Below, one piece after another: positions 10,719 through 43,965 of a stretch of 49,435 bases of DNA. A model generated the notes under the pieces. It saw nothing but the letters and a program-made list of their open reading frames with translations, was not told where the DNA came from and did no database searches. Position 1 is the stretch's first letter; each line of letters opens with the position of its first letter. The position numbers and the translations under genes were made by a program. The DNA comes from a virus (Duplodnaviria; Heunggongvirae; Uroviricota; Caudoviricetes): IMG/VR virus record IMGVR_UViG_2526164669_000023, positions 1 through 49,435 of that record; one strand, given 5' to 3'.

Positions 10719-10826
10719 TTTTTATGAGGAAATAATCGACGAATGAGGGCTAATGTCTGGTCACCCGGTTGACAATTACAAATATTTTATTGACGATGAA
10801 TGGAAAATGCGTGACGATTACAATAT

Positions 10827-11960
10827 ATGACTTGTCAAAGTATAATGAGAGATTGCATGAAGATTAACCATGAGGATTTAATTGATCTTATAAAGGCATC
10901 ACTGGATGCGAATTACAGCGAAGTTCGTAGTGTTAGTAATCGCATTGTTCGCGCAATTAGCGCTCAGGATGCTGACTTAGCAAAGCAAATTAAGTCTATC
11001 ATCCGTAAAAAAGGGGTACCATTACGTAGCTCTGGTTATACGGACAGTTTGCCCTTAGATCCGAAATCAAGGATGCCTTTAGTGGAAGAAGTCGAATGGC
11101 CTGCAACGCCTTTATTTCTTTCTGATGAATCACAGCATATTTTTCATGCTTTTATTCAGAATGTTATCCATCAGAATGAACTTATAGAGAATGGAATTCC
11201 AGGTAAATTGAATTTACTTCTTTCTGGTCCGCCAGGAACAGGTAAGACATTAGTCGCTGGTCATATCGCATCCAAATTAAACAAACCGCTCTATGTTGTT
11301 CGGCTTGACTCTGTTATTTCTTCTCTGTTAGGTGATACAGCGAAGAACCTAAGACAGATTTTTGACTTCGTCCCGACAAAAGATGGTGTGTTATTTCTTG
11401 ATGAAGTAGATGCGGTTGCTAAGCTTCGTGATGACAATCAGGAAGTTGGAGAGTTAAAAAGAGTTGTTAACACATTAATCCAAGGACTGGATTCTCTTGA
11501 TGATTCTGCTATTGTCATTGCTGCAACTAATCATTCGAAGCTATTGGATCCAGCAATTTGGAGACGTTTCCCATATAAAATTAGCTTTGGTTTGCCTGGA
11601 CAAGATGTCAGATGTGCTATGTGGGAACATTTTTTATTTAGAGATGATACGGATTCATTTCTAAGTAAAATGTTATCTATCATATCAACTGGGCTAACAG
11701 GTGCTGATATTGAAAATATCAGTTTATCTGCAAGAAGGCATAGTGTTTTATCTGGCAATGGACTGGATATACCATCTGTTGTTTATGCTATATTGAATAG
11801 CGTTGCAGATAGTACAGCAATTCCTTTTGGTAAGGATATAAATTCGAGTGTTAAGAAAAATTTAGCGAAGGAATTATCTAAGTTTAAATTATCACAGGCA
11901 GATATCGGTAGACTTTTAAATGTGAGCAGGCAAACTATATCAGGTTATTTCAAGGAATAA
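10827..11960 (+). CDS. Classical-clade AAA+ ATPase with C-terminal HTH (candidate defense ATPase, IetA-like)
   Basis: Walker A LLLSGPPGTGKT, Walker B VLFLDEVDA, sensor-1 IAATN, Arg-finger region LDPAIWRRFPY; C-terminal XRE-like HTH LSQADIGRLLNVSRQTISGYF. AT-rich relative to flanks. Alternative start at Met11 (10857). Confidence 0.75.
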   Translation: MTCQSIMRDCMKINHEDLIDLIKASLDANYSEVRSVSNRIVRAISAQDADLAKQIKSIIRKKGVPLRSSGYTDSLPLDPKSRMPLVEEVEWPATPLFLSDESQHIFHAFIQNVIHQNELIENGIPGKLNLLLSGPPGTGKTLVAGHIASKLNKPLYVVRLDSVISSLLGDTAKNLRQIFDFVPTKDGVLFLDEVDAVAKLRDDNQEVGELKRVVNTLIQGLDSLDDSAIVIAATNHSKLLDPAIWRRFPYKISFGLPGQDVRCAMWEHFLFRDDTDSFLSKMLSIISTGLTGADIENISLSARRHSVLSGNGLDIPSVVYAILNSVADSTAIPFGKDINSSVKKNLAKELSKFKLSQADIGRLLNVSRQTISGYFKE

Positions 11961-11962
11961 TT

Positions 11963-12538
11963 ATGGTCAGTGAAAATAAAGCTAAAATTTTAAACCCAAT
12001 AATTACTTTATTGAAGCCACCAACGCCAGAGGCGATTCCTGTTGGAGGGAAAAGTCGTAAAAATATTGTTGATTCACGGTTGAAACAACAGCGTGAAGTT
12101 TTATCCTCAGAGATAGATTCCATATTAAGAACAGAAGGTGAAATAGTTAAACATCGTGGTAAGTATCATATAGTAACAAGTATGTTTGAGGACTCATATG
12201 CACCATCGTTTATACCAGATTCATTATTCTGTCCCAGTGTTGAATGTAAGATAGTTGCACCAGCATACAATGGATATTTAATTGAGGTCAATAGCAATGC
12301 TTTATTGAAGTTGAAAAATAAAATTAATAATGCAAAAGCTATTACTGATCTTGTGGATATTTCAAGGGTTAGAAGTGTTAGTCTTTTTGATTCATCTTGT
12401 ACATTGCGAAATAGTAGCCTTGATTCGCTCTGGAATACAGTTAAGGCTTTGAATACATTTCAATTTAATATGTGGCTTATGCCTTTTTTTGATGAGCTTT
12501 CTAGAGAGTCTGTAGTTTCAACTTTTTTAAATTTTTAA
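11963..12538 (+). CDS. Hypothetical protein, middle gene of ATPase/protease cassette
   Basis: 191-aa ORF starting 3 nt after the ATPase stop; AT-rich; no motif I recognise. Confidence 0.55.
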   Translation: MVSENKAKILNPIITLLKPPTPEAIPVGGKSRKNIVDSRLKQQREVLSSEIDSILRTEGEIVKHRGKYHIVTSMFEDSYAPSFIPDSLFCPSVECKIVAPAYNGYLIEVNSNALLKLKNKINNAKAITDLVDISRVRSVSLFDSSCTLRNSSLDSLWNTVKALNTFQFNMWLMPFFDELSRESVVSTFLNF

Positions 12539-12741
12539 ATGATGGTATCATCGCTTTTGGTTATTCAGATTTTGACATAAAAACTATAAATCAAGATGCT
12601 GCTGTTGGCGGGGATAATATAGTCATAGTTCCACCGTTACTTATTGAAGCGATAAAAAAGTATCGTAAATCAGGTCAAGCATCCGTTACCGTCACTGTAG
12701 AGACTAAAGATAGTTTAAACAGGATACTGAATAGCAGTGCT

Positions 12742-14229
12742 GTGTATCGTATAGATCCTGTATCACCGCTAAACGTAACAGATACTCCTCCTGGTAATGG
12801 GGCTGAACCTGTTCCACCAATATTGGGGGATAAGAAAATGCCAACTGTAGTTGTAATTGATGGTGGGTGTAATGCGAAATCATATTCAAATTTAAATATA
12901 TATAAACTAAATCCGCTAATTCCAGATCATGATGCAGATTGTAAACATGGTAATAAAGTTGTATCGTTGTTATGTCACGGTTATGCTTGGAATAATAATT
13001 TAAACTTACCTAAATTGCAATGTAGCTATATAAGTGCACAGGCTATTGCGAAAAGGGGAGTGTTGAAACAACCAACTCCGGATCAATTTTTAAATTATTT
13101 AAGAATGGTTGCTGACAAAACGTCATCTATCGCCAAGGTCTGGAATCTTTCGTTTAATGAAGACGCTCCTCATTATAACTGTAATGAGATAAGTTATCTG
13201 GGACATAAAATCAGTTTGTTGGCTCGAGAATTTGGTATTCTGCCTGTAATATCTATCGGTAATGTTTCAAAGAACGAAAAACAAAAAAATCTTTGTCCGC
13301 CCGCAGATTGTGAGTCAGGAATTACAGTAAGTGGGAGAACGGCCAATCATGAAGGAATGCCTTCAGATGGCTGTCCTTTAAGTCGGAAAGGCCCTGCTCC
13401 TGCAGGAATGAAAAAACCTGAGTTATCATGGTTTTCTCGAGTTAGGGTGATAGGTGGAACAGTAGATATCGGAACAAGTTTTAGTGCTCCATTAGTTTCA
13501 TCTATTGCTGCTCATACCTTTTCGAATATTAAAAATGCCACTCCTGATTTGGTTAGGGCATTATTGATTAACAGGAGTGAGTTGCTTTCTCATGATGATG
13601 CATTAGGATGGGGGACTCCTTGGGATGGCGATTTACTGCCATGGTATTGTAAAGATGGCAGTGTCACATTAACGTGGATATCTAAGTTAAAGGCTGGGGC
13701 TGCTTATTATTGGAACGATCTTCCATTACCTCCAGAGATGTTAGTTAATGGTAAATTAGTTGGTGAGATATCTCTGACAGCTATACTAAAACCTAAGGTT
13801 TCTGAGTTCGGAAGTGAGAACTATTTTTCGACAAGGCTCCAATGTTCGTTACAGGCAATAAAAGAAATTAACGGAACGCTAAAAACAGAAAGCCTTCTTG
13901 GGTCAATGAAAGAATCTTCTGTTGATGAGCGTAAAGCTAGAAATGAACTTTCTAAATGGAGCCCTATTCGCCATCATGCAGAGTCGTTTAAGAGAAAAGA
14001 TATAACAGGGTGTAAAATTCGGCTTTATGCTAGGATATATGCTAGAGATTTGTATCAGTATGGGTTAAATAACCAACGGGAGCTTGAAGAGCAAGAGGTT
14101 TCCTTTGTTTTAACTTTTAAAAGTGTATCAGGATCGTCCTCAATATATACATCAATGGTTCAGCAACTTGGTGTTTATGTTGAAAGTGCTGTTATAGATA
14201 ATCACATTAACATAGATGTTAATAAGTGA
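12742..14229 (+). CDS. Subtilisin-like serine protease (peptidase S8) with C-terminal extension (IetS-like)
   Basis: D-H-S triad motifs in canonical order: VVVIDGGC, CKHGNKVV, GTSFSAPLVSSIAA; about 250 extra C-terminal residues. Track start is GTG; an ATG (MPTVVVIDGG) lies 32 codons downstream; in-frame stop at 12616. Confidence 0.75.
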   Translation: MYRIDPVSPLNVTDTPPGNGAEPVPPILGDKKMPTVVVIDGGCNAKSYSNLNIYKLNPLIPDHDADCKHGNKVVSLLCHGYAWNNNLNLPKLQCSYISAQAIAKRGVLKQPTPDQFLNYLRMVADKTSSIAKVWNLSFNEDAPHYNCNEISYLGHKISLLAREFGILPVISIGNVSKNEKQKNLCPPADCESGITVSGRTANHEGMPSDGCPLSRKGPAPAGMKKPELSWFSRVRVIGGTVDIGTSFSAPLVSSIAAHTFSNIKNATPDLVRALLINRSELLSHDDALGWGTPWDGDLLPWYCKDGSVTLTWISKLKAGAAYYWNDLPLPPEMLVNGKLVGEISLTAILKPKVSEFGSENYFSTRLQCSLQAIKEINGTLKTESLLGSMKESSVDERKARNELSKWSPIRHHAESFKRKDITGCKIRLYARIYARDLYQYGLNNQRELEEQEVSFVLTFKSVSGSSSIYTSMVQQLGVYVESAVIDNHINIDVNK

Positions 14230-14268: not shown

Positions 14269-14295
14269 TACCCGCTTCGGCGGGTTTTTGTTTTT
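14269..14295 (+). terminator. Rho-independent terminator after the cargo cassette
   Basis: CCCGC-TTCG-GCGGG hairpin followed by TTTTTGTTTTT. Confidence 0.7.
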
Positions 14296-14419: not shown

Positions 14420-14593
14420 ATGAAAATCGAAGAATTGCGTGAAATTTTTAGTGAAAATGGCCTCTATGCTGTGCGCGTTGAGAATGGGAAAGTTGTCTAC
14501 ACAACGTTAATCCCTGATGATCATGTAATTTTATCTATCGAGGCATTCATTGAATACCTTGAAAGGCTCGGTTTCAAGGTGATTCGGGAATGA
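14420..14593 (+). CDS. Small hypothetical ORF (57 aa)
   Basis: Hand-read ORF MKIEELREIFSENGLYAVRVENGKVVYTTLIPDDHV... in the gap between the cassette terminator and the next gene; below track cutoff. Confidence 0.3.
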   Translation: MKIEELREIFSENGLYAVRVENGKVVYTTLIPDDHVILSIEAFIEYLERLGFKVIRE

Positions 14594-17395: not shown

Positions 17396-17471
17396 GGCCC
17401 TTTAGCTCAGTGGTGAGAGCGAGCGACTCATAATCGCCTGGTCGCTGGTTCAAATCCAGCAAGGGCCACCA
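17396..17471 (+). tRNA. tRNA with CAU anticodon (Ile2/Met type, ileZ-like)
   Basis: 76 nt; acceptor GGCCCTT/AAGGGCC, anticodon loop CTCATAA, T-arm GCTGG-TTCAAAT-CCAGC, 3' CCA. Confidence 0.8.
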
Positions 17472-17473
17472 TT

Positions 17474-17550
17474 CCGCCACTAGCTCATCGGGATAGAGCA
17501 TCAACCTTCTAAGTTGATTGTGCGAGGTTCGAGTCCTCGGTGGCGGACCA
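17474..17550 (+). tRNA. tRNA-Arg (anticodon UCU)
   Basis: 77 nt; acceptor CCGCCAC/GTGGCGG, anticodon loop CTTCTAA, T-arm CGAGG-TTCGAGT-CCTCG, 3' CCA. Confidence 0.8.
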
Positions 17551-18034
17551 TTCCATGCAAGTTTAGCTGGCAGCGCTATTAGCTCGGCGTAATAGGGCTA
17601 TTCGTTAGGCTCTGTTAGTTCACCATATTTCGTCAAAACTTTTCTTTTCAACGCTACAGTTAACGTTAATCATTACAAAAACTACTGCTGATGTAAGTCT
17701 TGTGAACTGTTATTTCTGAAGAGCTTACTGTGATTTATTGCGACAACGGAGTTAGCGTACTCCCAATTTGTTCATTTTTATGTTGTTTTTTTTCACAATT
17801 TCCTGTGAGAAATCAGAAGTCTGGATGAAATAATGCAAAATGGCATCTGAATCGATCGCAGTTTGGCATTCGAATCGATCATGATTTGGCATCCATCTCC
17901 GATCACAGTTTGGCATCACAATCGATCACGATTTGGCATACTTCCGATCATTGATTGGCATTCGCCAGTCACTCCGGGAATTAACTCTTTTCACCACAGT
18001 CTCCATTGCCGTGTTTAAACCAGTGGAGACGTCA

Positions 18035-19600
18035 ATGTCCAAAAAGAGAAAATCCAGGAGCACTATGGAAACTTGTTTTAAGATCCTTCAGCTCAAGTTC
18101 GATAAGAAGCTGACTAACCGTTGTATCGGACTGACGTTACACATCAGCGCCTCAACCGTTTTTGAGGTTCTTGCCCGCTTCAAAGCCTCTTCTCTGTCAT
18201 GGCCATTACCTGCTGATATATCCCATGACACGCTGGAGAAACTCATTTTCCCGCCCAAAGACACCTCTGCGTCAGAGCTTGTTATGCCTGACATGCTGTA
18301 CTTCGATACGGAAATGAGAAAACCTGGCGTGACGCGCCAACTGTTGTGGATGGAATACAAGGCACAGGCGGGTGACAAAGCGATGGGATACTCACACTTC
18401 TGCCGTTGCTACCGGAAGTGGAAAAAAACGCGACGCCTCTCCATGCGACAGGAGCATCGTGCTGGCGAAAAGCTCTTTATCGACTTCTGTGGTCCTACGC
18501 TTCCTGTTATTAATCCGGACACCGGAGAGATACGCCGCGTGGCAATCTTCGTGGCTGTAATGGGGGCGTCCAACTATACCTATGTTGAAGCGTGCGAAGG
18601 TCAGGACATGATGTCATGGTTAAATGCCCACAGCCGTTGCCTGACCTTCCTGGGCGGCGTACCGAAGCTGCTCATCCCCGATAACCTCAGAAGCGCAGTG
18701 AAAAAAGCCGATCGCTATGAGCCTGTCATCAACGACAGTTATCAGGCGCTGGCTGAGCACTATGGCACGGTTATTATCCCGGCCCGCCCGCGCAAACCTA
18801 AAGATAAACCAAAAGCAGAAAACGGCGTCCTCATCGTCGAGCGATGGCTTCTTGCCCGCATCCGTAATGAAACCTTCCACACGCTCAGGGCGCTGAATGC
18901 ACGCCTTCGGGAGTTGCTGACGGACATGAATAACCGACCAATGAAGGGATACGGTAATCAAACCCGCGCAGAACGCTTCCGCATGCTGGATGCACCAGCA
19001 CTCTCTCCGCTGCCTCTGGAGCCTTATGAATACACGGAATACAAAGCCGTGAAGGTTGGCCCTGACTACCACGTTGAATATGCCCGTCACTGGTACTCCG
19101 TTCCACACGAACTGGTCGGTCAGCGTCTGTCACTGAAGGTGGGGCAGTCGGTGGTACAGCTCTGGCACAAGGGGCAGTGTGTGGCGCAACATCCGCGCAG
19201 CACACATGAATATAAACACACAACCAATCCGCTTCACATGCCAGAACGCCACCGGCGGCATGGGACATGGACACCGGAACGCCTTATCGAGCAGGGAAAC
19301 CGTACAGGTCCGTCCACAGGCCGGGTGGTTGAATCCATGCTGAAAGCCAAACCCCATCCGGAGCTGGCTTACCGTGCAGTCCTGGGTCTGCTGGCACTTC
19401 AGAAAAAATACGGCCCGGAACGGCTGGAAAAGGCCTGTTACGTTGCCCTGCACTATAACGCCCCGGACAGACGCTTTATCGACAATCTGCTGCGTCATCA
19501 TCGGGATAACGTTGAGCTTCCGTTATCCCGCCAGGGCGAACAACATCCGGCATATGCTTCAGAGCATGAAAACCTGCGTGGTCCTGGCTACTACCACTGA
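18035..19600 (+). CDS. istA: IS21-family transposase IstA
   Basis: 521 aa from MSKKRKSRSTMETCF; N-terminal HTH and DDE-type core; followed by an IstB ATPase. Confidence 0.8.
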   Translation: MSKKRKSRSTMETCFKILQLKFDKKLTNRCIGLTLHISASTVFEVLARFKASSLSWPLPADISHDTLEKLIFPPKDTSASELVMPDMLYFDTEMRKPGVTRQLLWMEYKAQAGDKAMGYSHFCRCYRKWKKTRRLSMRQEHRAGEKLFIDFCGPTLPVINPDTGEIRRVAIFVAVMGASNYTYVEACEGQDMMSWLNAHSRCLTFLGGVPKLLIPDNLRSAVKKADRYEPVINDSYQALAEHYGTVIIPARPRKPKDKPKAENGVLIVERWLLARIRNETFHTLRALNARLRELLTDMNNRPMKGYGNQTRAERFRMLDAPALSPLPLEPYEYTEYKAVKVGPDYHVEYARHWYSVPHELVGQRLSLKVGQSVVQLWHKGQCVAQHPRSTHEYKHTTNPLHMPERHRRHGTWTPERLIEQGNRTGPSTGRVVESMLKAKPHPELAYRAVLGLLALQKKYGPERLEKACYVALHYNAPDRRFIDNLLRHHRDNVELPLSRQGEQHPAYASEHENLRGPGYYH

Positions 19601-19616
19601 CAGAAGGAACAACCGT

Positions 19617-20372
19617 ATGAGTGATAATCTGTTAAACAAACTGACCCAACTGAAACTCCCGGCGATGGCCGGGAGCCTGATACGGCAACGGGAAACGCCT
19701 CAGACTTACGACGAACTGTCGTTCGAGGAAAGGCTGACACTGCTGGTTGATGACGAGCTTCTGAGCAGAGAAAACAGTCGTGTGGCACGGTTGAGAAAAA
19801 ATGCCTGCCTGAAATATCAGGCAACACCGGAAGGGCTGCGTTATCCGGCCTCAAGAGGTCTGCGGGCTGAACAGATGAGGGAACTGCTGAACGGCCACTA
19901 CATAATCCACAGGAAAAACCTACTGATAACCGGTCCGACAGGATGCGGTAAGAGCTGGATAGCCAATGCGCTGGGCGAACAGGCATGTCGACAGAAATAC
20001 AGCGTCCGGTACTGTAGAACCGGGCGATTACTGGAACAGTTGGCTCAGGGACGTGTTGATGGCAGTTGGCTGAAATATCTGAAACAGTTGCAAAAAATAC
20101 AGGTTCTAATCCTGGACGATCTGGGGCTGGAACAGTTAAGTAACGCCCAGTGTAATGACCTTCTGGAGATCACAGAGGATCGTTACGGACAAAGCAGCAC
20201 GATAGTGGTAAGCCAGTTCCCGGTAGATAAATGGCATGGTCTGATGGAGAACCCAACAACAGCAGATGCCATCCTGGACAGACTGGTACATAACTCACAC
20301 AGAGTGGTCCTTCAGGGAGAGTCCCTGAGGAAAAATCCCCCGACAGTGGAAAGCAGCGAAAAAACGAGTTAA
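19617..20372 (+). CDS. istB: IS21-family helper ATPase IstB
   Basis: 251 aa from MSDNLLNKLTQLKLPAMAG; Walker A GPTGCGKSWIANAL, Walker B VLILDDLG. Confidence 0.8.
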   Translation: MSDNLLNKLTQLKLPAMAGSLIRQRETPQTYDELSFEERLTLLVDDELLSRENSRVARLRKNACLKYQATPEGLRYPASRGLRAEQMRELLNGHYIIHRKNLLITGPTGCGKSWIANALGEQACRQKYSVRYCRTGRLLEQLAQGRVDGSWLKYLKQLQKIQVLILDDLGLEQLSNAQCNDLLEITEDRYGQSSTIVVSQFPVDKWHGLMENPTTADAILDRLVHNSHRVVLQGESLRKNPPTVESSEKTS

Positions 20373-21147
20373 AAAGCGGTAGAAAAAGTTAAGTTCCCGG
20401 TTGATCGAATGGATGCGAATCGCTGATCGAACTTCGATGCCAATCCGTGATCGAATAGAGCGGAATACGCAAATAACGTAAATTGTATGCGTATGATACA
20501 TATTTATACATATATTTAAATATGAAAACTAATTAGTTTTTGATGTCATATAAATTATCGGTAATATTACTCCCGACCCGAAAGGCAGCAAGTTTCTGTT
20601 CACAGGGGTGTTACCCGCTGTCTTGCGGGTCATTGCAGGCATCCGTTTAATCATAATGAAGGGCTGTTATCAGTATCAGTGTCATTATTGTGGTTACGGA
20701 GGCCTGCTCTATGTGCAGGTATCGTATAGTGGTTATTACATCAGCCTTAGGTTGGTAATGCCGGTTCGATTCCTGTTCTCCGCAACTTCATTGTTTTTTG
20801 GACAAGTTTTTACAGCACTGGCGGTTTTCGTGAGGAACAGATCTCTTTAATACCTTTATCGTCCCTCATTCTGTAATGGAGATCGGTTACAGACTCAGTG
20901 CTGTATTTTTTATGACACAGAAATGGCGCATTGCCCACGAAAGGAAGCAGGATTTAGCGTGGAGTAACCAGTGATGCGCCATCTCTGTGTCGGAAAACAT
21001 GAATTGGGGCGTTCCTCAGTGCGAGGGTGGTTTATAGAGTCGGTTTAGCGGGAAACCACAGTATCCACGTAAAGTGGAATACTTCGGGAGGCACCCGATG
21101 CCCCAAACCCAATAATCATTATAATATTGTGTCCTTTTATCGTTTTA

Positions 21148-27311: not shown

Positions 27312-28751
27312 TTGATGGCAGAGATCGAGATTACTGGCGGCCTCGGTTCAGCACTGATGCGTATTCTTGAGGCTGAAGAAATTCAGCCGGGAACCGATAT
27401 TGGCTATGAATTGTGTAAGCTGCTGTGGCAATTCCATCCTCTGGGCGGAAAACTTGTCGAAAAACCCATACTGATGGCGATGTGTAAGCCGCGACAGTAT
27501 AACGTGGAGACAGATCCTGACGAGAGGGTTGTGCGGCGTTTCCAGGAGGTATGGGAACGTATGAGGGTCAACGAGAAGATAAAAAATCTGTTTTTTCTGT
27601 CTCGTTGCTACGGTGCTGCAGCGATCGGCGTGGGCACCGACAGTGTTTCATGTCGTGAGCCGCTTCCGACATTCGGGCTGACAGAAGAGGATGTGTATAT
27701 CAACGCGTGGGATCCGTTGAACGCTTCCGGTTCGATGGTGACTGACCAGAACCCAAACAGTCCGTTTTTCCAGGAAGCCAACAAAAGGCTGAAGATTGGC
27801 GGAAAAGACTGGCATCCGTCACGCACACTGAAAATCTTCAACGGCACACCGATTTATCTGGAGTTTCAGAGTTCATCGTTCGGATTCACCGGACGAAGTG
27901 TGTTTCAGCGCGTTCTTTATTCCCTGAAATCCTATATCAACACGATGGAGGCGAATGATCTCGTCAGTCAGAAGGCGGGCGTACTGGTAGCTAAAGTTGT
28001 GCAGTCCGGTTCGAAAATGGACGGGATCATGGCTGCTGCCACGGGGCGTAAAAGGGAAAACGTGAAAGCCGCCAAAAATAAAGGCGTGTTGAGTATTGGA
28101 AAAGACGAAGACGTAAGTTCACTGAACCTGCAAAACATCGACGGGGCGCTGAATACTGCCCGCGACAATATCATTGCTGATATTGCCGCCGGGAGTGACG
28201 TTCCGGCCATTATTATCAAGGAAGAAGCATTCAGTAACGGATTCGGTGAAGGTAAGGAGGACTCGAAAGCCATCAGCCAGTATATCGATGGTGTACGCCA
28301 GCAGATTGAACCTGTGATGGATTATTTCGAACGCCTGGTGCAGTACATCGCCTGGAACGAGGAATTTTATCAGTCGCTGAAAAATGATTACCCGGACATC
28401 ATAACCGAGGACTATAAAACCACGTTTTACCAGTGGCGGCGCGAGTTTACCGCGACGTGGCAGGAGCTGGTGGAGGAGTCGCCGGACAAACGCCGGGAAA
28501 GCGACAGTAAAGTGATTCAACAGGCGATAGCACTTTTCTCTGCCGTGTCGCTACAGGTTGATCCTGAAAACCGTGCCGCCGTCACTGAATGGCTGGCAAG
28601 CCTTGTTAATGCCACGCAGACCTATGGCGAAGCTCCACTCATCATTGATGTGGACGCCCTGGCGAATTATGAACCACCGAAGCAGGAGACGCCTGATGGC
28701 AATTTCCAGCCGGGCGGGGAGGAAGAAGAAACGGATCAGGACGCTGTATGA
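27312..28751 (+). CDS. Portal protein (putative)
   Basis: 479-aa ORF immediately after TerL; acidic C-terminus; assigned by position and size. Confidence 0.5.
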   Translation: MMAEIEITGGLGSALMRILEAEEIQPGTDIGYELCKLLWQFHPLGGKLVEKPILMAMCKPRQYNVETDPDERVVRRFQEVWERMRVNEKIKNLFFLSRCYGAAAIGVGTDSVSCREPLPTFGLTEEDVYINAWDPLNASGSMVTDQNPNSPFFQEANKRLKIGGKDWHPSRTLKIFNGTPIYLEFQSSSFGFTGRSVFQRVLYSLKSYINTMEANDLVSQKAGVLVAKVVQSGSKMDGIMAAATGRKRENVKAAKNKGVLSIGKDEDVSSLNLQNIDGALNTARDNIIADIAAGSDVPAIIIKEEAFSNGFGEGKEDSKAISQYIDGVRQQIEPVMDYFERLVQYIAWNEEFYQSLKNDYPDIITEDYKTTFYQWRREFTATWQELVEESPDKRRESDSKVIQQAIALFSAVSLQVDPENRAAVTEWLASLVNATQTYGEAPLIIDVDALANYEPPKQETPDGNFQPGGEEEETDQDAV

Positions 28752-42802: not shown

Positions 42803-43963
42803 ATGGAAAATTTTGCAAATAAGTTAAAAATACACACAGAGCATGTTGCAAAAATGGGGGTGTTTTGTACAACTGAAGAAACGACAAAACAAGCACTCAT
42901 TATGCCATTACTAGATATTCTTGGTTTTACTCCGTATGATCCAAGAAAAGTCAAAGCTGAGTATAGTGCTGACTTCCCCGGGGTTAAGGCTAATGAACGG
43001 GTTGATTACGCTTTATTTTGTCATGATGTTCCTGTGATGTTCATTGAGGCGAAATCGTTTTCAGAACAAATTGATAATCACTGCCCACAGCTATCAAGAT
43101 ATTTTAATTCAACACCGGAAGTTACTATATCAGCCATTACAAATGGTGTTGAATGGCGTTTTTTTACGGATTTGAAACAAAAAAACATAATGGATTCAAC
43201 GCCGTTTTTAAAAATAAGAATGGATTCTCTAACTCACTCCGATATTACACAATTATTTCGTTTTCGTTATGATAAATTCAAACCAGAGGCTTTACGGACA
43301 CTGGCTGAAGAAAGTGTTTATTTGAATTCATTTACTAAAACAATCAGTTCTAGTCTTCGTGAAGTTGATCTGGAGTTTGTTCGATATGTTGCTAGTCGTT
43401 CAAATATTGAGAGACAACTTAATCAGAGATTTCTTGAGTTCGTGACTCCATTAGTTAAACAGGCCGTTGAGCGCGCTGTTAGCGCAATGGTGGTTTCCGG
43501 GCTATCTACACAACCGGTAGAGCAAACTAAAGAAAATGATGCAACGGATACACAAGTTAATAACGCCATTGTTGATGAAGAAAACCCCAACATAATAACC
43601 ACAGCCAAAGAATTGGAGCTATTTGAAAGGGTAAAACAAATCATACAAACAGAAGATAATATAGAATATAAAGATACTGAGTCATATTTTGGTGTACTAT
43701 TGAATGGTAAAACTAATAGATGGCTGTTAAGATTTTATGATAAAAAATCTTCATTTATAACTTTACCTATTTCGCTTAGTGAAGTTCAGTTGAATGAAAT
43801 AAGACGAGCTCGACTTGATACGGATGGTAAAAGGATACATATAACTAATCCGGAAGATATACTTCGCATATCTGGTTTGATTCTGGATTCATACGAGTAT
43901 GTTAAAAATGATGATAATTTCCGCCGAGGGTCCAGAGCGAGCAGTTTAGAAGAGGTTGAATAA
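42803..43963 (+). CDS. PD-(D/E)xK nuclease-fold protein, HsdR N-terminal-like domain (moron; candidate defense gene)
   Basis: About 386-aa ORF; motif ERVDYALFCHDVPVMFIEAKSF (D...E-A-K); AT-rich, own RBS GGAGGAG, promoter-like AT-rich upstream region with TTGACA at about 42745, own terminator. Confidence 0.65.
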   Translation: MENFANKLKIHTEHVAKMGVFCTTEETTKQALIMPLLDILGFTPYDPRKVKAEYSADFPGVKANERVDYALFCHDVPVMFIEAKSFSEQIDNHCPQLSRYFNSTPEVTISAITNGVEWRFFTDLKQKNIMDSTPFLKIRMDSLTHSDITQLFRFRYDKFKPEALRTLAEESVYLNSFTKTISSSLREVDLEFVRYVASRSNIERQLNQRFLEFVTPLVKQAVERAVSAMVVSGLSTQPVEQTKENDATDTQVNNAIVDEENPNIITTAKELELFERVKQIIQTEDNIEYKDTESYFGVLLNGKTNRWLLRFYDKKSSFITLPISLSEVQLNEIRRARLDTDGKRIHITNPEDILRISGLILDSYEYVKNDDNFRRGSRASSLEEVE

Positions 43964-43965
43964 GT

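Follow-up and report, generated by a model that had tools for sequence, protein, structure and literature searches.

Why should an ATPase encoded by a prophage end in what looks like a helix-turn-helix (HTH)? The question is raised by a 49,435-nucleotide stretch of viral DNA (IMG/VR record IMGVR_UViG_2526164669_000023, positions 1 to 49,435; the whole of this stretch is termed the window), in which the longest open reading frame (ORF) at 10827-11960, on the + strand, encodes 377 amino acids (aa), as described in an initial annotation. That annotation read the product as a Vps4/FtsH-type AAA+ ATPase fused to a C-terminal HTH of the XRE type, which might autoregulate its own cassette. The reading frame from 10857 to 11960 is ietA, the gene for the AAA+ ATPase half of the two-gene IetAS system. 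Its HTH is confidently predicted to be genuine, and IetA probably uses this domain to bind an array of phased boxes upstream of its own gene.

The gene is identified by full-length profile matches. The PADLOC IetA profile PDLC02196 aligns over positions 5-369 of 374 at E=5.2e-100, and a second PADLOC IetA profile, PDLC02195, gives E=1.5e-85. The best NCBIfam models of the two genes of the cassette are IteA (NF042959) and IteS, both scoring under their equivalog cut-offs; the alignment to NF042959 is full-length and reaches 297.7 bits, against a curated cut-off of 510 bits. Because this equivalog threshold is not reached, the protein is placed in a divergent subfamily of IetA, an assignment made at the level of the family rather than of the equivalog. 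The idea of a one-off or novel ATPase-HTH fusion was rejected, since the IetA family is a known one and the HTH is part of its architecture.

The ietAS genes of pTiC58 were reportedly described by Yamamoto in 2009 as a toxin-antitoxin system, and IetAS is said to have been recognised as an anti-phage system by Gao in 2020. IetS acts as the toxin and IetA as the antitoxin, and plasmids carrying a mutant ietA cannot be made (PMC13069673, citing Yamamoto 2009). The system works by abortive infection; the B. cereus version is triggered by yosG of phage SPbeta, and phage escape mutants map with a group of replication-machinery genes (bioRxiv 10.1101/2022.08.27.505566). In recent papers the mechanism of IetAS is called unknown (PMC13069673, PMC11878078).

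Directly downstream of ietA, on the same strand, lies the S8 subtilase gene ietS (11963-14229). All homologous loci examined have an S8 peptidase gene immediately 3' of ietA, as do 38 of 42 viral loci, the pairs coming from Pectobacterium, Salmonella, Serratia, Photorhabdus, Pseudomonas, Bradyrhizobium, Modicisalibacter and phage contigs. In the window, the loss of one T from a homopolymer run splits the 755-aa IetS into ORFs of 191 aa and 495 aa. The distal part carries the Asp (VIDGG), His (KHGNK) and Ser (GTSFSAP) motifs of the protease, as read from the translation, and an intact 755-aa ietS is present in the RefSeq record and at loci L082, L083 and L227. The frameshift may reflect misassembly of the homopolymer, phase variation or a real inactivation of the toxin, and since ietS is frameshifted here, IetA may act as an orphan regulator or antitoxin. 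Damaged copies of ietS beside an intact ietA are also seen in Serratia (L090, 4113-5942), where a DDE transposase lies beside an ietS shortened to 609 aa, and in Photorhabdus (L091, 4113-6349), where it is broken into ORFs of 51, 555 and 84 aa. That ietS is lost repeatedly while the HTH-ATPase is kept is in line with a toxin-antitoxin-like relationship. The GenBank record of Pseudomonas phage PfAC08 has the two names the wrong way round, calling the ATPase IetS and the peptidase IetA. Genome contigs were also scanned with two patterns drawn from the IetA alignment, one of which amounted to a generic Walker A motif; at least 75 of the 80 loci so obtained held unrelated AAA proteins, and L002 was the useful one.

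The HTH stretch of IetA (LSQADIGRLLNVSRQTISGYFKE) comprises 23 residues at 11889-11957. Pfam HTH_3 matches it over profile positions 7-31 of 55, with E=0.004 (17.6 bits) in the whole protein and E=1.9e-4 (21.8 bits) when the 50-aa tail is taken in isolation. The homologues give a clearer picture. The motif (S/T)Q.(D/E)IA.LL.VSRQ.(V/I)S.YLK is kept in 49 of 49 aligned sequences (53-81% identity; residues are numbered throughout from Met11 of the longest ORF). When 36 homologous tails were scanned singly against Pfam, HTH_23 was found in 24 (best 1.3e-8) and HTH_3 in 20 at E up to 0.01 (best 1.4e-7); further matches were to HTH_11, HTH_24, HTH_7 (5.8e-7) and 'Antitoxin Xre-like HTH', and models of sigma-70 region 4 were matched by 15-16 of the 36. 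Comparison of the tail profile with region 4 of E. coli sigma-70 itself by hhalign gave E=0.057 over 18 columns, which is too weak for a sigma-4-like reader to be claimed. The same profile matches the XRE repressor CylR2 at E=1.6e-6 and PezA at E=0.0038. AlphaFold2 places helices at residues 330-341, 347-354 and 358-366, with a predicted local distance difference test (pLDDT) score of 83-90 and three helices in both models, and nearly all Foldseek neighbours of the tail are DNA-binding HTH domains, at template modelling (TM) scores of 0.64-0.75. Domain searches of the homologous tails, the CylR2 match and structure prediction all support the HTH that the initial annotation had proposed.

The XRE label applies in part. 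Helices 2-3 resemble XRE/HTH_3, but the HTH_3 score lies below 23 bits and a single residue follows the recognition helix, leaving no room for XRE helices 4-5; the domain is thus a minimal three-helix HTH rather than a five-helix XRE domain. In its bundle, its structural neighbours and its profile matches it is like the three-helix class of HTH_23, resolvase HTH_7 and IS21 IstA, DNA binding itself being predicted.

This architecture extends well beyond the prophage. An exhaustive HMMER search yielded 150 representatives of 50%-identity clusters, 100 of which are IetA-sized. A hidden Markov model (HMM) iterated from the close tails recognised an HTH at the C-terminus of 79 out of the 100, and in 0 of 100 in each of the controls, namely shuffled tails, mid-protein segments and N-termini. 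HTH_23 is the commonest Pfam match across the tails of the family, and several of the 21 representatives missed by the HMM look HTH-like by eye. On this profile evidence, the predicted HTH is a family-wide trait of most IetA proteins and is not peculiar to the IetA of this prophage.

If IetA carries a DNA-binding tail, a target might be expected nearby. Four boxes spaced by 21 bp lie upstream of ietA (Table 1), overlapping the best promoter-like site of the cassette, and the inverted fourth box is found in most close loci. The layout recurs in the otherwise unalignable ietA upstream regions of six other genera, and the boxes keep constant positions relative to the ATG, their centres lying near -86, -65, -44 and -23. 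Across 11 loci, the 120 bp upstream of ietA contain 40 TGAC/GTCA cores, against 8.3±2.7 in shuffles, and 21 pairs of such cores exactly 21 bp apart where 0.04 would be expected; 44 sites together give the consensus tTGACAww. An autocorrelation that presupposes no motif, taken over the 130 bp before ietA, peaks at 21 bp in 16 non-redundant close loci (z=18.6), and 26 non-redundant remote viral loci show peaks at both 21 bp (z=21.9) and 20 bp (z=15.1). In the 49-kb window just one copy of the three-box pattern is present, against 0.05 expected, and among 99 loci the pattern is confined to the region in front of ietA. An IMG/VR search for TGACA-N16-TGACA-N16-TGACA returned 120 stretches, none with IetA, 15 specified bases being unspecific at database scale. 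The boxes accompany the cassette across Alpha- and Gammaproteobacteria, Firmicutes phages and Pf phages. An Rfam scan of the leader region gave no credible match.

The initial annotation had also pointed to a perfect TATAAT just inside the longest ORF, at 10840-10845. The hexamer is indeed present there, although it occupies 10841-10846 and is not above chance alone: the region holds 13 promoter-like sites where 14.4 are expected from shuffles, and the best of them is not significant by itself.

The word repeated upstream of ietA is not the same in all subfamilies but varies in step with the recognition helix. TGACA/TTWACA boxes accompany SRQ helices (15 loci, mean 3.1 boxes, no CGTTC), CGTTC boxes accompany SK[ST]T helices (7 loci, mean 3.0) and ATAAC boxes accompany xR[RQ][VI]R helices (4 loci, mean 3.25). 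In Paenibacillus phage Yyerffej (L098, 3358-3490), where the helix reads SPSTVNHHLKK, five ATTCGAT/ATCGAAT boxes lie upstream of ietA; in Pseudomonas phage PfAC08 (L099, 93-200), with the helix HASTVSRILQK, GCAACA is found four times and TTCGACATT twice. The autoregulation foreseen by the initial annotation thereby gains comparative support, from a conserved 21-bp array that appears to co-vary with the recognition helix, binding being predicted.

It is suggested, with a probability of about 60%, that IetA, as the antitoxin-like partner, binds the upstream boxes through its HTH and autoregulates ietAS. The predicted domain order is an N-terminal bundle, a flexible linker, the ATPase, a tether of ~15 residues and the minimal HTH. 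Each subunit of an IetA oligomer would place its HTH on one of the four TTGACA-type boxes, and as a spacing of 21 bp corresponds to two helical turns, all of the boxes would lie on one face of the DNA. Occupation of boxes 3-4 would occlude the promoter, so that oligomeric IetA would repress or tune transcription of ietAS in the manner of type II antitoxins. The ATPase core would keep IetS harmless until infection, a step taken from the literature.

A bolder version of this mechanism, to which little credence is given, has IetA as a promoter-tethered AAA+ machine, six HTH tails being seated on the phased boxes while IetS is held in check, such that a phage trigger couples derepression to release of the protease. 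The trigger could make IetA leave the DNA, or could let IetS cut the disordered linker or the tether. The TTGACA boxes might then be read in the fashion of sigma region 4, in competition with RNA polymerase. If this were true, a single protein would tie together sensing, the amplification of transcription and the release of the effector.

Several points weigh against autoregulation by IetA. The DNA-binding step is one that we infer throughout. The protein's own HTH_3 scores (17.6 and 21.8 bits) fall under the 23-bit cut-off, the Foldseek E-values for a domain of 50 aa are not significant, and ~20% of the family representatives (21 of 100) are missed by the HTH profile. A -10 element conserved relative to the boxes was sought by eye across loci and was not found. 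TTGACA is the -35 consensus of sigma-70, and the distance from the TTGACA of one box to the GACAAT/GACGAT of the next is exactly 17 bp, as it would be in weak sigma-70 promoters that overlap; the array may thus consist in part of tandem promoter elements rather than operators. The co-variation of helix and box is confounded by shared ancestry and fits any DNA binder encoded by the cassette equally, the HTH of IetA being the sole predicted one.

Some of these points lend themselves to another reading of the tail, as a protein-protein module with no role in DNA binding, which would dock, for example, IetS or adjacent subunits, the boxes being tandem promoters or the sites of another factor. Three-helix HTH-like bundles can act as interaction modules, the weak Foldseek E-values are in keeping with this, and the interval from TTGACA(n) to GACAWT(n+1) is that of a promoter. 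Against it, the recognition helix opens with a (near-)invariant Arg-Gln and the net charge is basic, both of them typical traits of a DNA reader, the structural neighbours are nearly all DNA-binding domains, and the co-variation of helix and box is left unexplained. Moreover, since the boxes travel with the cassette through such distant hosts, host factors are unlikely to be their readers. A purely protein-binding tail is accordingly considered improbable. It is even harder to see the HTH likeness as a chance property of a helical C-terminus with a fortuitous TATAAT nearby. The sub-threshold HTH_3 match (17.6-21.8 against 23 bits) and promoter-like sites no commoner than in shuffles would allow it, but the Pfam matches of the homologous tails, the CylR2 profile match, the DNA-binding structural neighbours and the 79 of 100 detections against 0 of 100 in controls effectively refute it, and hardly any weight is left to coincidence.

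The HTH might instead be a DNA reader with a different object. In this scheme it would serve as an infection sensor, binding phage DNA or replication intermediates, switching the ATPase and so freeing IetS, and the boxes would be ordinary promoter elements. The association of the escape mutants with replication-machinery genes and the yosG trigger of the B. cereus system would suit such a role (bioRxiv 10.1101/2022.08.27.505566), as would the flexible tether on which AlphaFold2 places the HTH. A sequence-specific HTH would be a poor general sensor of diverse phages, however, and the box word follows the recognition helix with a 20-21 bp phase kept across 42 non-redundant loci, which argues for a cognate cis target travelling with the cassette and not for foreign DNA. 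A sensor of this kind therefore seems doubtful, and autoregulation through the upstream boxes is preferred.

The placement of the promoter-like site and of box 4 bears on where ietA begins. Its start is taken as Met11 (10857), as the initial annotation had supposed, because this is the start annotated in RefSeq, all 49 aligned homologues begin there and GAGAGA lies 4 nt upstream. At the position of GAGAGA, homologous loci have AGGAG-, GGGG- or AGAGG-type sites. None of the aligned homologues matches the 10 codons of the in-frame extension, the few longer N-termini being unrelated extensions. A start at 10827 was rejected in view of the missing Shine-Dalgarno sequence, the overlap with box 4 and TATAAT and the absence of the extension from the homologue alignment; judged from these sequence features, the 10 codons at 10827-10856 are probably not translated.

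The body of the protein is a classic-clade (Vps4/p97/FtsH-like) AAA+ ATPase with intact catalytic motifs, and here the initial annotation, with its LDPAIWRRF arginine-finger region, was borne out. Pfam AAA (PF00004) matches at 102.2 bits against a cut-off of 21.2 (E=3.9e-29). Alignment speaks against degeneracy of the ATPase motifs, as the catalytic columns, including sensor-1 T224 N225, are invariant among the 49 homologues. The family profile matches p97/Cdc48 in the PDB at E ~1e-57, and the AlphaFold2 model (pLDDT 81) matches p97, FtsH, PAN, spastin and Vps4 at E ~1e-12. Sigma54_activat gave only 17.4 bits (E=0.0037; cut-off 20.2) over the Walker A region, with no GAFTGA loop. Pore-loop 1 (S155-G159, 11322-11336) falls in an invariant S-L-L-G-D-T with L157, L158 and G159; it contains no aromatic residue and so differs from the aromatic-hydrophobic-Gly loop of the threading type. 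The lack of an aromatic residue, a trait shared with p97 D1, suggests that IetA may not be a processive unfoldase.

The first 90 residues gave no match in a Pfam scan. Their three-helix bundle sits where Vps4 has its MIT domain and could be a substrate- or trigger-recognition domain; an MIT-like assignment is unsupported, there being no Pfam match. The linker that follows is among the most conserved parts of IetA, with G53, P55, L56, G60, P66, D68, K70, L75, E78 and P85 invariant. In the AlphaFold2 model its pLDDT is 46-55 in the first half (residues ~51-70) and 73-84 further on. The linker could, as an extended peptide, dock into a partner such as a trigger protein or IetS, in the latter case at the active site.

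Table 1. Coordinates of the ietAS features in the window, in order of position.
Feature	Position	Strand	Remarks
Box 1, TTGACA	10769-10774	+	First of the 21-bp-spaced boxes
Box 2, TTGACG	10790-10795	+	21 bp past box 1
Box 3, GTGACG	10811-10816	+	21 bp past box 2; abuts the -35-like ATTACA at 10817-10822
Promoter-like site: ATTACA, 18 nt, TATAAT (10841-10846)	10817-10846	+	10/12 consensus matches, best of the cassette
In-frame extension, 10 codons	10827-10856	+	Overlaps box 4 and TATAAT; no preceding Shine-Dalgarno sequence
Box 4, TTGTCA	10832-10837	+	21 bp past box 3; pseudo-palindromic box with inverted central base; in the promoter-like spacer
Shine-Dalgarno-like GAGAGA	10847-10852	+	4 nt before the ATG at 10857; read from the sequence
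ietA coding sequence, 367 aa + stop	10857-11960	+	Starts at Met11 of the longest ORF; product identical to WP_000700156.1
Predicted N-terminal three-helix bundle, residues 5-52	10869-11012	+	AlphaFold2 helices 5-16, 20-35, 39-52
Conserved low-confidence linker, residues 53-89	11013-11123	+	GVPLRSSGY..LP.D.KSR.PL.EE..WP..P.F; many invariant columns
Walker A GPPGTGKT, residues 124-131	11226-11249	+	G124, P126, G127, T128, G129, K130 invariant; P125 nearly so; T131 is T or S
Walker B, D182-E183	11400-11405	+	Invariant in 49 homologues
Arginine fingers R236-R237 of LDPAIWRRF	11562-11567	+	Vps4-like RRF form; invariant
AAA lid, residues 249-314, with G(A)DI motif	11601-11798	+	Model helices 249-260, 267-276, 282-299, 305-314; Pfam AAA and fold matches
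Predicted three-helix HTH, residues 330-366	11844-11954	+	Recognition helix SRQTISGYF; R358 invariant, Q359 and Y364 near-invariant
ietS, N-terminal part, 191 codons	11963-12538	+	PADLOC IetS profile positions 21-166; stop created by the frameshift
T5 run	12532-12536	+	T6 in the RefSeq record; sole difference from NZ_AP042478.1
ietS, remainder, +1 frame	12537-14229	+	Pfam Peptidase_S8 E=2.1e-14; PADLOC IetS E=1e-58, profile ~266-760
Intrinsic-terminator-like hairpin + T-tract	14270-14295 (hairpin 14270-14285)	+	Cassette end; homology to other E. coli prophages restarts

The window as a whole is a Rac-type prophage of E. coli OkiPb01675, matching NZ_AP042478.1:1643578-1693013 but for one base over 49.4 kb. 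The order of the genes before the insert is intR, xisR, recET, kilR, sieB, racR, ydaS, ydaT, ydaU and ydaV. After ydaV comes an insert of 3.6 kb, with a guanine-cytosine (GC) content of 32-40% between flanks of ~50%, which contains ietA, then the S8 peptidase gene ietS and then the terminator-like hairpin; on its 3' side the nin-like genes resume (DUF1367, DUF1364, DUF1133). The ietAS slot thus has the replication genes of the prophage on one side and its nin-like genes on the other. The cassette is present in 1 of 5426 complete E. coli genomes, and in E. albertii-type contigs, as well as in an IMG/VR contig, another lambdoid prophage carries an identical cassette in this slot.

Just past the cassette, a 57-aa ORF (14420-14593) falls within a stretch, from ~14270, that is homologous to the 'rem' region of lambdoid prophages; the start of this stretch, an incomplete pseudogene in RefSeq, forms the right-hand junction of the ietAS insert. 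An IS21-family element (ISSso4), tRNA-Ile and tRNA-Arg are found within 17397-20373. Further along, RefSeq annotates genes at 27316-28752 ('anti-CBASS protein Acb1 family protein') and 42804-43964 ('type I restriction endonuclease'-like). The former adjoins the terminase genes, where a portal gene would be expected, and the latter lies among baseplate and tail genes. In other genomes, ietAS is seen beside defence or toxin-antitoxin modules: RelE/MqsA-like (L085, 4059-4503), a Schlafen-like helicase with MazG (L092, 239-2515), a ubiquitin-like Bub/JAB/E1/E2 set (L094, 249-2887) and AbiEi (L095, 1-180). Such company is what a defence island typically shows.

IetAS occurs widely, on prophages as well as on plasmids and islands, and what appeared to be an odd fusion at 10827-11960 is explained as ordinary IetA family architecture. 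A predicted DNA-binding tail throughout the family, together with helix-matched boxes that are phased at 20-21 bp before ietA in every subfamily, would provide a concrete and cheaply testable model of how IetAS is regulated and possibly switched, and the box array offers a cis-element signature for annotating IetAS operons. In the accessible literature, outside of which the original 2009 description of ietAS falls, neither 'helix-turn-helix' nor upstream boxes were found in connection with IetAS, and the family-wide HTH and its phased boxes apparently have not been described there. The cassette is therefore a divergent member of a known system; the new part is apparently the regulatory feature, which offers a concrete way into a defence system that recent papers describe as mechanistically unknown (PMC13069673, PMC11878078).

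Compared with IetA of other IetAS systems, the protein of the window shares the full-length profile match, a length of ~370 aa, the S8 protease IetS encoded downstream, a location on a prophage or mobile element, the C-terminal HTH and the periodic upstream boxes. It differs in its score (297.7 against 510 bits), in the rarity of the cassette in E. coli and in the frameshift of ietS. With the classic-clade AAA proteins Vps4, spastin/katanin, p97/Cdc48, FtsH and PAN it has in common Walker A and B, sensor 1, the RRF of the second region of homology and the GADI lid, and its invariant, non-aromatic LLG of pore-loop 1 is like that of p97 D1. Unlike the classic-clade proteins compared, however, IetA has a C-terminal HTH, and its partner is a separate S8 protease that is neither fused to it nor proteasomal.

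AAA+ proteins in which a C-terminal HTH acts on arrays of sites are represented by DnaA, through its domain IV, and by enhancer-binding proteins of the NtrC type, through a Fis-type HTH. The likeness is one of analogy only, as these belong to other AAA+ clades, whilst IetA is without a GAFTGA loop and its HTH has three helices without extra elements. Type II antitoxins such as HigA, MqsA, PezA and HipB likewise place an HTH on the antitoxin partner, and their repeated operators overlap their own promoter, as is predicted for ietAS. These are small binders, whereas IetA is an ATP-driven machine of ~370 aa, and instead of a pair of palindromes ietAS has 3-5 direct boxes, the putative operators, at a 21-bp phase. 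Hexameric ArgR on its tandem ARG boxes, and iteron arrays, have repeats ~21-22 bp apart from centre to centre, which present one face of the DNA to an oligomer. The repeat spacing upstream of ietA is alike, in a comparison that concerns spacing only, the proteins and their folds being unrelated.

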